Positions 4,542 to 32,965 of a stretch of 64,000 nt of DNA are shown one piece after another. The translations under genes and the position numbers were made by a program. Position 1 is the stretch's first letter. Every line of letters starts with the position of its first letter. Source of the stretch: an uncultured bacterium (GTDB lineage: Bacteria > Patescibacteriota > Dojkabacteria > SC72); assembly GCA_903840015.1 (NCBI GenBank), contig CAIMEL010000004.1:30671-94670 (forward strand). The letters are read 5' to 3'. The notes below the pieces were generated by a model. The model made no database searches, was not told where the DNA came from, and was given only the letters and a program-made list of their open reading frames with translations.

Positions 4542-4569
4542 AACCTAGTAACATATATTAGGGTATTTA

Positions 4570-4722
4570 ACATTAAAGCGTATGGGCAATTAAGGAAATT
4601 GCAACGAGGTGAGAGTTATCGAAATATCAGCGGGTGCTCTCAGGCTATATTGTTAGCCTAAAGATTAATACAAATCTACAAAGATTAATCATCAATCCCT
4701 AACAATCTAAATTCATGCTACA
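4570..4722 (+). ncRNA. glmS ribozyme: glmS ribozyme (glucosamine-6-phosphate-sensing self-cleaving riboswitch) in the glmS 5' leader
   Basis: Immediately upstream of glmS. Core matches the B. subtilis glmS ribozyme: A|AGCG cleavage-site region, P1 hairpin GCAATTAAGGAAATTGC, AACGAGG, GTTATCGAA..T.TC.GCGG.TGC.CTC and GGCTATATTGTTAGCC (P3/P4 counterparts). Confidence 0.8.
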
Positions 4723-4727
4723 CAACT

Positions 4728-6506
4728 ATGTGCGGTATTTTTGGATACATTGGGAAAAGAGATGCGAAAAGAATAATTGTAGAAGGTCTTAAGAGATTAG
4801 AGTACAGAGGATATGATTCTTGGGGTATTGCACTTTTAGAAAAAGGGAAAATACATCAATACAGAGATATTAGCGAAATTAGTACAAACAAGAGGATACT
4901 AGATTTGCCTTGCTCGAATATTGGGATTGGACATACTCGATGGGCAACACATGGAGGAGTTTCAAAGAAGAATGCACATCCACACATATCCCTAACAAAG
5001 GATTTTACTCTAGTACAGAATGGTATTGTTGAGAACTTTGAAGATCTAAAAAAAGATTTAATAGCTAAACACGTCACTATTAAATCTGAAACGGATACGG
5101 AAATCATAGTCAGATTAATTGAAGAAGCAAGAAACAAAGAGAAGAATCTCAAAGAAAGTATCATATCTGTTTTTGAGAGATTAAAAGGGAGAAATACAAT
5201 TGCAGTCTTAGATTCAAAAAATGGGAAAATATATGCCATTAGAAATGGCTCTCCTTTGATACTCGGAATAGGGAAAGAAGAGATTTTCCTTGCGTCAGAT
5301 ACACTTTCCTTCTCTCCATACTGTAAGAATATTGTTGTGGTAGATAACTTAGAGATGGTCGAGATTGAACATAATAGTTTTAAAGTCACGGATTTAACCA
5401 ATTCAAAAGTCAAAAATGTTACTGTTACAAAATTAAAGTACCTGTACGAAGATATCGATAAAGGGGAGTATAAACACTATATGTTGAAGGAAATAGTCGA
5501 GCAATCAAACACCTTTATTAACGCCATAGCATACTCAGAAAAAGATCTTCAATCATTAAGTAAATCCATTAAACAGAGTAGTCGAGTATATATCATAGGC
5601 GCTGGTACAGCAGGGTTTGCTGCTGGTCAAATAGCATATTTCCTTCGAAATATAGGAGGGATAGATGCTCAAGATCTGAGAAGTTATGAATTTGCTAGCT
5701 ATCTACCAATCGTAAAACCAACAGACCTAATCGTAGCTTTATCTCAAAGTGGTGAGACGGCAGACACCATAGAGGCTTTGGAAGAGCTTAAGAAAAAAGG
5801 ATGTAAGATTGCAAGCCTTGTTAATATGTTGGGAACTACAATCAGTAGACTCTCTGACTATCAATTCTTCTCAAATGCAGGACCAGAGATATGTGTAGCT
5901 TCTACTAAGGTTTTCACTTCACAATGTGTATGGGGATATATATTAGCTAAGAACATTGTAGGAGATTTAAAAGGAGGTAAGCGGGAGATTCTCACACTTG
6001 CAAAAGAATTAAAAACTTTCTTCTCTTCTAAAAATCTTAGCAGTATCGACGAGATATCTAAGAAGCTTGTAAAGCAGGAACATATGTTCATTTTAGGAAA
6101 AGGACAAAATTTCAATATCGCACTAGAAGGTTCTTTGAAGATAAAAGAGATTTCCTACAAACATGTAGAAGGATTTGCTGCAGGGGAGTTAAAACATGGT
6201 GTAATAGCTTTAATTGAGAAAGGTACTGTTGTATTTGGAATTCTTTCGAATGATAGAGATAGTAAAGATATATTAAGTGCAATGGAGCAAGTAAAAGCCA
6301 GGGGAGCGTTTACTATCGGAATAGGGGACAAAAAATTCAAGAAAAAGGATGTATTTGATAGATATATTGTTACCCCAGGAAGAGACATAGCTAGTAGTAT
6401 TACAAATGTAATACCATTTCAATTAATCTCCTACTATCTTTCTGTTAGGTTGGGAAATAATATAGATAAACCTAGGAATCTAGCAAAATCTGTTACTGTT
6501 AAATAG
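4728..6506 (+). CDS. glmS: glutamine--fructose-6-phosphate aminotransferase (isomerizing)
   Basis: 592 aa; MCGIFGY N-terminal nucleophile Cys2, GATase-2 domain plus two SIS domains, C-terminal ..KPRNLAKSVTVK. Confidence 0.95.
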   Translation: MCGIFGYIGKRDAKRIIVEGLKRLEYRGYDSWGIALLEKGKIHQYRDISEISTNKRILDLPCSNIGIGHTRWATHGGVSKKNAHPHISLTKDFTLVQNGIVENFEDLKKDLIAKHVTIKSETDTEIIVRLIEEARNKEKNLKESIISVFERLKGRNTIAVLDSKNGKIYAIRNGSPLILGIGKEEIFLASDTLSFSPYCKNIVVVDNLEMVEIEHNSFKVTDLTNSKVKNVTVTKLKYLYEDIDKGEYKHYMLKEIVEQSNTFINAIAYSEKDLQSLSKSIKQSSRVYIIGAGTAGFAAGQIAYFLRNIGGIDAQDLRSYEFASYLPIVKPTDLIVALSQSGETADTIEALEELKKKGCKIASLVNMLGTTISRLSDYQFFSNAGPEICVASTKVFTSQCVWGYILAKNIVGDLKGGKREILTLAKELKTFFSSKNLSSIDEISKKLVKQEHMFILGKGQNFNIALEGSLKIKEISYKHVEGFAAGELKHGVIALIEKGTVVFGILSNDRDSKDILSAMEQVKARGAFTIGIGDKKFKKKDVFDRYIVTPGRDIASSITNVIPFQLISYYLSVRLGNNIDKPRNLAKSVTVK

Positions 6507-31033: not shown

Positions 31034-31708
31034 TTATTTACCTTTAACTATATCCCATCCACTTACTAAACGTCTGTCTCCATATCTTTCTAAACATGTT
31101 GAGATTACAAGATCAGAGTAGGGGACTGTTGAATTTTTAAGAACTTCTGTATCTCTCTCCCATACTGCCTCTAATGTGACATCTCCAACAAGGATTTGCG
31201 TACCCACCAAATTATCTTCAGAATGGTATCTGTCTAGTAGGTCACCCAGAAGAAAAAATCTATTAGCTTTTGTAAAACTGTTATGTGTATGTAATTGGTA
31301 TGTGCCATCTTTTGCAAGAATGATACCTCCCATTACAATGTTACCTTCTGGATCTAGTTGTTTTTGCCATTTGTATTCACCTACTAGAAGATTATCAAGT
31401 TTTTTAGCTGTATTGTCATCATATTCTCCAATGTATGTATATTTGAAATATATTTTTTTGTCTAACCATTTCTTTGGTAAATCTCTGTTCAAAACGGATG
31501 CCTCTAGTACAACAACTTTCTCCTTTTTCATACCAAGGAGTTGTTCTAGAGTTTTTTCTTCTTTAACTTCTACTGGTTTCTCTTCTTGCTGTATTTCTAT
31601 GTTTACAACTTCATATGGTTTTATGGTAGGAATGAATACATATATTGTGAAGAGGATTGTAGTAAGTAAGAAGGTTAATGGGATTATGAGGAAGATTTGT
31701 TTTTTCAT
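31034..31708 (-). CDS. sortase-family transpeptidase (class E/F-like), N-terminal membrane anchor
   Basis: 224 aa; N-terminal TM; conserved His (QLHTHNS), FFLLGDL, catalytic LVISTC (TLxTC) and downstream RRLV Arg. Immediately downstream of a LAETG-bearing substrate gene. Confidence 0.7.
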   Translation of the reverse strand: MKKQIFLIIPLTFLLTTILFTIYVFIPTIKPYEVVNIEIQQEEKPVEVKEEKTLEQLLGMKKEKVVVLEASVLNRDLPKKWLDKKIYFKYTYIGEYDDNTAKKLDNLLVGEYKWQKQLDPEGNIVMGGIILAKDGTYQLHTHNSFTKANRFFLLGDLLDRYHSEDNLVGTQILVGDVTLEAVWERDTEVLKNSTVPYSDLVISTCLERYGDRRLVSGWDIVKGK

Positions 31709-31725
31709 CCCTTGATTATATCTTT

Positions 31726-31763
31726 TAGAAAAGAAAAAAGCAGTACTCTTTCGAATACTGCTT
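31726..31763 (-). terminator. rho-independent terminator between sortase-substrate gene and sortase gene
   Basis: Minus-strand transcript forms AAGCAGTA-loop-TACTGCTT (8-bp stem), immediately followed by UUUUUCUUUUC. Confidence 0.55.
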
Positions 31764-31790
31764 CTTCTTAACTAATATCGAATATATTAA

Positions 31791-32777
31791 TTAAAGCATA
31801 TACTTTTTAACAAATATTGCAGAGGATACTAAGGTACCCAATACTAATATCATTTGTACAAAGTATACTAAGGTTGTATCTGATGCTCCTGTTTCAGCTA
31901 AGACTACATCTGTAGTACCTTTAACTTCACCTTTGTCTTCATCTGTAATACCATCAACCTCACCATCATCATCTTCTTCCTCCTCTTCATCATCGTCAGG
32001 ACATGCTGCGGTTGCAGGACATACTTTATATCCACCTTCACCATCTGCTACCTCTCCTCCAAGGTATCCACATGCGGTTGGACAATCCTGCTCACATGCA
32101 ATCATATCTGTACTACAAGCTACTTCTCTTGTAGTGGAAGATGCTTCGAATCTACAGTTAGTTTTAACAGCATCTCGAATATGCTCTGGTAAATTAGGAT
32201 CTGTATTGAAATCACTCATAGCCCATGAAGGAATGCCTAAACTCACACCAGTAGGCCTATGACACTTATTTGGGTCAGATGATTTAAGACCATATACAAC
32301 ATCGACAGGACCAAACGTTTCTATTTTGTAACAGTCATCAGGTCCACTTTTCTCTTCATATGTATACCCAGCAGGACAAGCATGTGCGTTGATAACTGAT
32401 CTTGTCTGCTTTTTATAGTTGTTTCCACTACATTTTTCATCTTGACAGAGACCTGCATTTTCATCCTGTTGATTGCATTTGTTACTATTACTGCATGAAC
32501 TCCAAGTACTCCAAGAGCTATATACAACAAAATCTTCTGCATAGATCTTATGATCTGCTGTGAAGGATTTTGTTGGGCAACCCTCATCACAAACTTCTAC
32601 AAAGAGAGTTTGAATTTTTGTTCCCTCTGTTGTTCCACACTGAGCAACACATTCAGAAGAATCTCTCCAATCTTCGGAAGGTATTAAAGAAACTCCTTAG
32701 ACACCTAATGGACTTCCTAGGAGGAACAAGAAAAGGAATAAAGGCAGAATTAGAAAGGCTAATAACTTTCCTTTCAT
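31791..32777 (-). CDS. secreted cysteine-rich surface protein with LAETG sortase signal, interrupted by one in-frame TAA (plus-strand 32697-32699). ORF track reports only the 3' part (31791..32246).
   Basis: Minus-strand ATG at 32777 encodes signal peptide MKGKLLAFLILPLFLFLFLLGSPLGV, then TAA. The same frame stays open for ~300 codons: Cys-rich segments (CVAQCGTTEG, CDEGCPTKSF, SSWSTWSSCSNSNKCNQQDENAGLCQDEKCSGNNY, ACEQDCPTACGY), a D/E linker (DDDEEEEEDDDGEVDG), then LAETG + hydrophobic helix + KKYML. Confidence 0.6.
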
Positions 32778-32965
32778 ATATATTAAAATAATAATTTAAA
32801 TTATTATTCCTACGACAAAAATATTAAAAGTTCATTGTCATAGATAACTATGCAAATTATACTCCTTTTCATCATTCATAGTCAACTACTATGAGTCCAA
32901 TTATTCCTTTGTACAAAAGCACATCCAAAGGGTAAGATATAGAAATTAATTAAACCCAATTATCA

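Follow-up and report, generated by a model that had tools for sequence, protein, structure and literature searches.

We analyzed a 64-kb stretch (64,000 nucleotides [nt]; contig CAIMEL010000004.1, positions 30,671 to 94,670; hereafter, the window) of a genome of Candidatus Dojkabacteria (WS6, a member of the candidate phyla radiation [CPR]), in which two adjacent genes on the minus strand appear to form a surface-display module. One is a 224-amino-acid (aa) sortase-like gene at 31034..31708 (−), an open reading frame (ORF) present just as an earlier sequence-only annotation (the original prediction) had stated; the other is a substrate frame of 328 codons on the same strand, which runs from the ATG at 32777 to a TAA at 31793..31791 and is broken at codon 27. 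The order of genes in this part of the window is prs, substrate, enzyme, HAD, and GH3, and it is identical at three related loci (L010, L011, and L012); the window also encodes MurB, which together with the GH3 enzyme is consistent with an organism having peptidoglycan. Named relatives of both the enzyme and the substrate all come from Dojkabacteria metagenome-assembled genomes (a few relatives are automatically labeled Saccharibacteria, and one belongs to a bin that is likely contaminated), and the family, which is restricted to Dojkabacteria, is annotated only as “hypothetical protein,” with no Pfam domain. As set out below, we consider it likely that the enzyme is a sortase-type transpeptidase of a divergent kind, that its substrate is a dedicated one, and that the gene for this substrate has been inactivated in the window strain.

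The AlphaFold2 model of the enzyme (predicted local distance difference test [pLDDT] score of 82.4) consists of a hydrophobic N-terminal transmembrane helix (aa 3 to 29), a disordered acidic linker (aa 30 to 50), and a beta-barrel (aa about 60 to 222); the anchor and linker are conserved across the family, and the barrel is presumably extracytoplasmic. The predicted strands and helices follow the canonical sortase order, b1-b2-helix-b3-b4-helix-b5-b6-b7-b8, with H142 placed right after b4 (136 to 141), C205 right after b7 (200 to 204), and R212/R213 at the opening of b8 (212 to 221). In a Foldseek search, the top 50 matches are all sortases (best E value of 8e-5, for the class A entry 7s56), and structural matches obtained by two different search methods are exclusively to sortases. 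As judged on a predicted model, the agreement with the eight-stranded beta-barrel fold of sortases is only moderate.

Of the residues expected of a catalytic site, H140, H142, C205, and R213 are invariant among 22 sequences that range down to 43% identity, and C205 is the sole Cys of the enzyme. The candidate triad is encoded on the minus strand at 31285..31283 (H142), 31096..31094 (C205), and 31072..31070 (R213). Around the nucleophile, the family consensus is D-L-[IV]-[IVM]-S-T-C, in which the Thr directly preceding the Cys is retained, as is a hydrophobic residue at the third position ahead of it; the fourth position ahead holds V/I and not T. Ratios of nonsynonymous to synonymous substitution rates (dN/dS) for the enzyme against close strains are 0.05 to 0.07, and the gene is, as judged by these values, under strong purifying selection. 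The hallmarks for which this gene had been singled out thus hold up, namely a membrane anchor, one invariant Cys in an ISTC context, and an invariant His and Arg, and they are joined by a sortase-like predicted fold.

Several results weigh against calling this protein a sortase, and most come from sequence-profile searches. The 224-aa protein matched no Pfam family at an E value of ≤1, and none of the 22 family members matched the sortase profile PF04203, even at an E value of ≤10, so that the enzyme failed a check that the original prediction had named as one that would refute it. No NCBIfam sortase model was matched, and a profile built from the family retrieved nothing from the PDB sequences at an E value of ≤10. 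When the family profile was run with HMMER against 1.84 billion representative proteins, 12 proteins were found, of which 10 are full-length or fragmentary members of the family itself; the other two are weak, multi-stretch matches (E values of 3e-7 and 3e-6) in proteins of about 600 aa, and no match was identified as a canonical sortase, these two being unexamined. The signature at the nucleophile is V-I-S-T-C rather than T-L-x-T-C, and, once its neighbor is inactivated, the window enzyme has no known substrate within the 64 kb searched. The enzyme family is too divergent for detection by any sortase sequence profile.

Profile-profile comparison gave alignments at E values that fall short of significance. 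Across sortases, hhalign E values were 0.05 to 0.3. Against Streptococcus pyogenes SrtA (a query sequence identical to that of PDB entry 7t8y), the alignment is collinear and places H142, C205, and R213 opposite His142, Cys208, and Arg216, with equal Cys-to-Arg spacing in both proteins, at an E value of 0.05 to 0.09, which is not significant alone. With Staphylococcus aureus SrtA, the database search returned only staphylococcal SrtA sequences (at least 67% identity), and the profile-profile comparison is therefore weak. An insignificant hhalign alignment to S. aureus SrtA placed I129 opposite the canonical His, and the relocated catalytic His that this would imply was rejected on the grounds of strand count, spacing, and the S. 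pyogenes alignments.

Could the resemblance to sortases be misleading, a product of convergence in fold or an artifact of the model, such that the protein is instead a lineage-specific membrane protein (e.g., a chaperone or other partner of the surface protein)? The absence of significant sequence similarity to any sortase and the marginal hhalign values speak for this explanation, but it would have to accommodate structural matches confined to sortases by both search methods; an invariant His, a single Cys, and an Arg whose placement and spacing are those of the canonical triad; and an obligate linkage to a protein bearing a sortase-type sorting signal. We regard it as very unlikely.

Among close strains, species-representative genomes, and metagenome contigs, a gene with a sorting signal of the general form [L/M/Y]-A-x-T-[G/A] lies directly upstream of the enzyme gene, on the same strand, at all 25 loci for which upstream DNA is available. 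Approached from the other side, a degenerate nucleotide pattern designed on this signal located 7 metagenome loci, and the enzyme gene was directly downstream in each of the 7. Motif scans of the 64-kb window revealed neither a second sorting signal nor a second TC...R-type signature. The pairing is conserved and looks dedicated, as had been proposed from the window alone.

The sorting motifs linked to the enzyme are LAETG, LADTG, MAETG, LAKTG, LTETG, GAETG, and YAKTG, together with LA[KSAP]TA in a sister clade, and they divide according to the enzyme with which they occur: enzymes at least 56% identical to the window protein accompany motifs ending in T-G, and those at most 51% identical accompany motifs ending in T-A in 14 of 15 cases. 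The sister enzyme clade (45 to 51% identity; L024-L032, L035-L037, L039, and L040) has LAxTA motifs and the tail GKEYLNRV, and at most of its loci the enzyme and substrate genes overlap by 1 to 11 nt, with no terminator between them. As read from these sequences, the G/A split by clade fits coevolution of enzyme and motif and may go back to a single evolutionary event.

At two loci (L006 3153..4913 and L016 4153..5913), two tandem LAETG substrates with differing ectodomains precede one enzyme gene. Pilus loci usually place a dedicated sortase beside its substrate, and this layout, together with the tandem arrangements, could be thought to favor an enzyme of the pilus type (class C-like) that polymerizes the neighboring protein into a fiber; most loci have a single substrate, however, and, unlike class C sortases, the enzyme has no second, C-terminal membrane anchor, the only hydrophobic helix of the model being the N-terminal one. 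A polymerase of this kind seems to us extremely improbable.

The substrate frame encodes every part of the layout previously described for it. The first 26 codons (32700..32777, −) specify MKGKLLAFLILPLFLFLFLLGSPLGV, which we judged to be signal-peptide-like because it starts with basic residues, continues with a hydrophobic core, and closes with small residues; the N termini of homologs are of the same type and end in SPSGVSA or similar. There follow a Cys-rich region (18 Cys in 301 aa) and a four-Cys module, CPTACGYLGGEVADGEGGYKVCPATAAC (CPTACGY...CPATAAC; 32001..32084, −), the copy number of which ranges among homologs from 0 to 2 or more. Next come an acidic, D/E-rich low-complexity stalk ending in KGTTDVV (31902..32000, −; model pLDDT below 50), within which the GTTxVV stretch ahead of the sorting motif is conserved across loci, and the LAETG motif itself (31887..31901, −), the sole C-terminal sorting signal in a six-frame translation of the window. 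The remainder (31791..31871, −) comprises a hydrophobic helix of 21 residues (31871..31809), the tail KKYML (31808..31794), and the TAA stop (31793..31791), so that the C terminus reads LAETG-ASDTT-LVYFVQMILVLGTLVSSAIFV-KKYML-stop.

A sorting signal consists of a pentapeptide, a hydrophobic segment, and a basic tail at the extreme C terminus, outside any folded domain, and all of this is found here. In the AlphaFold2 model of the 301-aa window product (mean pLDDT of 69.6), LAETG occupies residues 266 to 270 of 301, inside a segment with pLDDT values of <50 (residues 235 to 273), and the terminal helix (residues 274 to 300) begins immediately after this disordered segment. The motif is accordingly predicted to lie in a disordered stalk directly before the terminal helix, as the sorting-signal interpretation anticipated, and not within a folded domain. 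Homologs of the substrate (n = 19) share the N-terminal signal peptide and the C-terminal series GTTxVV-[LM]A[ED]TG-ASD, helix, and KKY.., and no NCBIfam LPXTG-anchor model matched the substrate. The succession of signal peptide, Cys-rich region, acidic stalk, LAETG, helix, and KKYML is thus encoded in full and is whole in intact homologs; in the window it is cut by a TAA, and the signal peptide is not joined to the rest in one intact frame.

The original prediction had read the minus strand from 32777 to 31791 as a continuous frame. This is not the case: codon 27 (32699..32697; that is, 32697..32699 on the minus strand) is TAA, which sits directly after the signal peptide and severs codons 1 to 26 from the remainder. 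Downstream of it, the frame is open for 301 codons, and its first in-frame start is a GTG at 32246. ORF finders do report only the 151-aa fragment noted earlier, but the reason given for it was wrong, since the fragment arises because of the TAA at codon 27 and the lack of a start codon before GTG 32246. At the corresponding position, the closest intact homolog (P0055, locus L013, 89% identity) has AAA (Lys), and frames are intact in P0055, P0056, P0057, P0063, and other homologs. An assembly error was rejected because five other assemblies, drawn from 2 or more samples, share the allele (987 nt compared, 0 mismatches); reassignment of the codon was rejected because TAA is the dominant stop of the window, closing 37 of 60 long ORFs and ending both module genes. 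For the substrate, the dN/dS relative to L013 is 0.18, and the gene was therefore constrained until recently. From these comparisons, the most likely history of the window copy is a recent inactivation by an AAA-to-TAA nonsense change. Separately, one public assembly carries an 88-aa gene called in an alternative frame within the interrupted substrate gene, a call that is probably spurious and caused by the nonsense codon; the nearest alternative-frame ORF of the window is at 32321..32590 (−) and is 89 aa long.

The same observations bear on whether the substrate might still be expressed, through read-through of the TAA or some other recoding, so that the whole module would still work, if only weakly or under regulation. 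That the 328-codon frame is otherwise intact, that its dN/dS relative to L013 is 0.18, that five assemblies share the allele, and that the enzyme gene is intact all favor such expression. Against it stand the standing of TAA as the dominant genuine stop, used by both module genes, and the failure to see any recoding signal; moreover, a one-base change from AAA accounts for the codon, and loss alleles do occur at this locus, as in the 90-aa remnant of L020 described next. We hold read-through to be quite unlikely and recent inactivation to be the better account.

Comparison of strains by blastn (window versus L010, L011, and L012) delimits a variable ectodomain cassette at 32092..32747 (−): the flanks are 94 to 95% identical in the three loci, and homology is gone between 32747 and 32092. 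Unrelated ectodomains occupy the locus in these strains (P0057 and P0063; L010 6031..6789 and L011 6031..6735), and the promoter, the first 10 codons, the C-terminal module, the stalk, and the sorting signal are common to them. The P0055 protein of L013 is a mosaic that combines a window-type domain with a module from the other alleles. In L020 (5719..5991), a remnant of 90 aa in which the signal peptide is fused almost directly to the anchor stands beside an intact enzyme gene; here the ectodomain has been lost in an event independent of the TAA in the window. Replaced ectodomains, the L020 remnant, and the TAA allele together attest that the exposed domain has been replaced and lost repeatedly.

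Upstream of the substrate gene is a promoter-like site, TTGACT-18 nt-TATAAT (32856..32885, −), that agrees with 11 of 12 consensus positions (a consensus match only) and is invariant in an alignment of L010, L011, and L013. The terminator previously placed between the two genes is borne out as a prediction: an intrinsic-terminator-like hairpin and T-run at 31724..31767 (−), with a 15-bp stem and a GAAA loop (hairpin at 31767..31734), begins about 23 nt past the substrate stop codon, and the 87-nt spacer has a minimum free energy of −25.9 kcal/mol (z = −5.5 against shuffles). Equivalent hairpins with U-runs lie at the same position in L006, L008, L010, and L013, with altered stem and loop sequences. 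This putative terminator is a feature of the subclade and not a property of the whole family, because in other clades the hairpin is absent and the genes lie 3 to 9 nt apart or overlap by 1 to 11 nt.

A TATAAT box (31715..31720, −), read from the sequence, lies 6 nt before the ATG of the enzyme and is kept 6 to 7 nt from the ATG in L006, L008, L010, and L013, which suggests that the enzyme gene is transcribed from a promoter of its own, as a leaderless mRNA. Further TATAAT boxes occur 5 to 8 nt before the starts at ATG 31011 (−), ATG 12470 (+), and ATG 55238 (+), and a Shine-Dalgarno-like motif precedes just 8 of the 60 long ORFs of the window; this pattern suggests that some window genes are expressed from leaderless mRNAs. 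Elsewhere in the window, a glmS ribozyme (Rfam RF00234, 60.6 bits) is present at 4566..4700 (+), upstream of a 592-aa ORF at 4728..6506.

If the pair works as its parts imply, the enzyme would be a membrane-anchored, extracytoplasmic cysteine transpeptidase with a sortase fold, serving a two-gene surface-display module of a Dojkabacteria bacterium. Cys205 would attack the Thr-Gly bond of LAETG with the assistance of His142 and Arg213, while the C-terminal helix and basic tail of the substrate kept it in the membrane; the amine of a cell-wall precursor would then resolve the acyl-enzyme, fixing the Cys-rich ectodomain at the surface on its acidic stalk. In the window strain, the module is most likely off at the substrate, with the enzyme gene intact.

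We know of no description of the envelope chemistry of Dojkabacteria, and a sortase-fold enzyme could instead act mainly as a processing or release protease that cuts LAxT|G and either releases the Cys-rich protein or hands it to an acceptor other than peptidoglycan, such as an S-layer component or a lipid. The great distance of the family from every characterized sortase would suit such a role, as would the latter half of the motif, in which G or A appears according to the clade of the enzyme. The substrates, however, have the full motif, helix, and basic tail together with the long acidic stalk typical of wall-anchored proteins, and the enzyme retains Arg213, the equivalent of which is part of the transpeptidation machinery in known sortases (PMC5148588). 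We consider a release protease unlikely and favor a transpeptidase.

On the basis of the predicted model, the enzyme would represent a new lineage-restricted sortase variant outside classes A to F, one that falls outside both the sortase family and class E as these are defined by sequence. A literature search found no published description of a Dojkabacteria-specific sortase. Sortase-dependent surface display is itself a well-known mechanism, but the present family marks a blind spot in annotation: neither Pfam, NCBIfam, nor HMMER reveals what it is, and censuses of CPR sortases would miss the enzyme. The T-G and T-A enzyme clades amount to a natural specificity switch, which may interest those who use sortases for protein ligation.

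Strict pairing, replacement of ectodomains, and loss alleles point to a single surface protein that is under strong diversifying pressure in Dojkabacteria. To our knowledge, how ultrasmall CPR bacteria recognize and hold partner cells is largely unknown, and a private, hypervariable client offers a concrete lead into CPR surface biology, although the biological weight of the window copy itself is lower because its substrate gene is broken. More speculatively, and with considerable doubt on our part, a private, extremely diverged sortase lineage might have taken the place of ordinary sortases in Dojkabacteria, or been added to them, and might serve one hypervariable client, with nearly identical strains exchanging, shuffling, or knocking out its ectodomain. 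In that case, the host cells to which these episymbionts attach, or the phages that attack them, would be determined at the strain level chiefly by this locus, and the TAA allele would be one “off” state.

Among systems already described, over half of CPR genomes are reported to carry sortases, in keeping with a Gram-positive-like envelope (PMC6744442). The CPR sortase family fam000526 (Meheust et al. 2019) is recognizable by ordinary annotation, unlike the Dojkabacteria family, which has no Pfam domain.

By analogy, the mechanism is best read as that of a sortase/sorting-signal pair with a class E-type LAxTG motif. As in class E (Streptomyces coelicolor SrtE1/SrtE2, Actinomyces oris SrtA, and Thermobifida fusca SrtE, with LAXTG substrates such as chaplins), Ala occupies the second position of the motif (LAETG/LADTG), and the enzyme is a membrane-anchored single-domain protein. 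In SrtE1, the catalytic His comes immediately after b4 (PMC5148588), and the Dojkabacteria model likewise has its His after b4, its Cys after b7, and its Arg in b8, with a Cys-to-Arg spacing of 8 compared to 9 in SrtE1. The b3/b4 connection, in contrast, is a 2-residue turn, followed by the nearly invariant Y137, whereas in SrtE1 it is a loop of 16 residues that carries the class E Tyr (PMC5148588). Unlike class E, the family has no detectable sequence similarity to that class, has VISTC at its Cys, and includes a sister clade paired with LAxTA; it is also tied to one or two neighbors, in contrast to the housekeeping role of class E enzymes, each of which has many substrates. Class E structures score no better than those of class B, C, or D. 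The “class-E-like” label originally attached to the enzyme is therefore not retained: it derives from the LAxTG motif only, structural matches do not favor class E over the other classes, and no sequence grouping backs it.

With class A (S. aureus SrtA and S. pyogenes SrtA), the enzyme shares the eight-stranded barrel, the N-terminal anchor, and the candidate triad, and the best Foldseek matches belong to this class; locally, its motif VMGG...Y-x-L-x-x-H-x-x-F aligns with VMGGENNYSLASHHIF of S. pyogenes SrtA. It departs from class A in its low structural-alignment identity (about 8 to 17%) and lack of a profile match, in its LAxTG/A motif as opposed to LPXTG, and in the arrangement of the genes as a dedicated pair.

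As a locus, the module resembles those of the pneumococcal PspA/PspC type, the surface proteins of which are mosaics that vary between strains but keep their export and anchor ends conserved. In a different organism and on a different fold, the Dojkabacteria locus likewise conserves its promoter, its signal-peptide start, and its C-terminal anchor, swaps the exposed domain between them, and includes null alleles.

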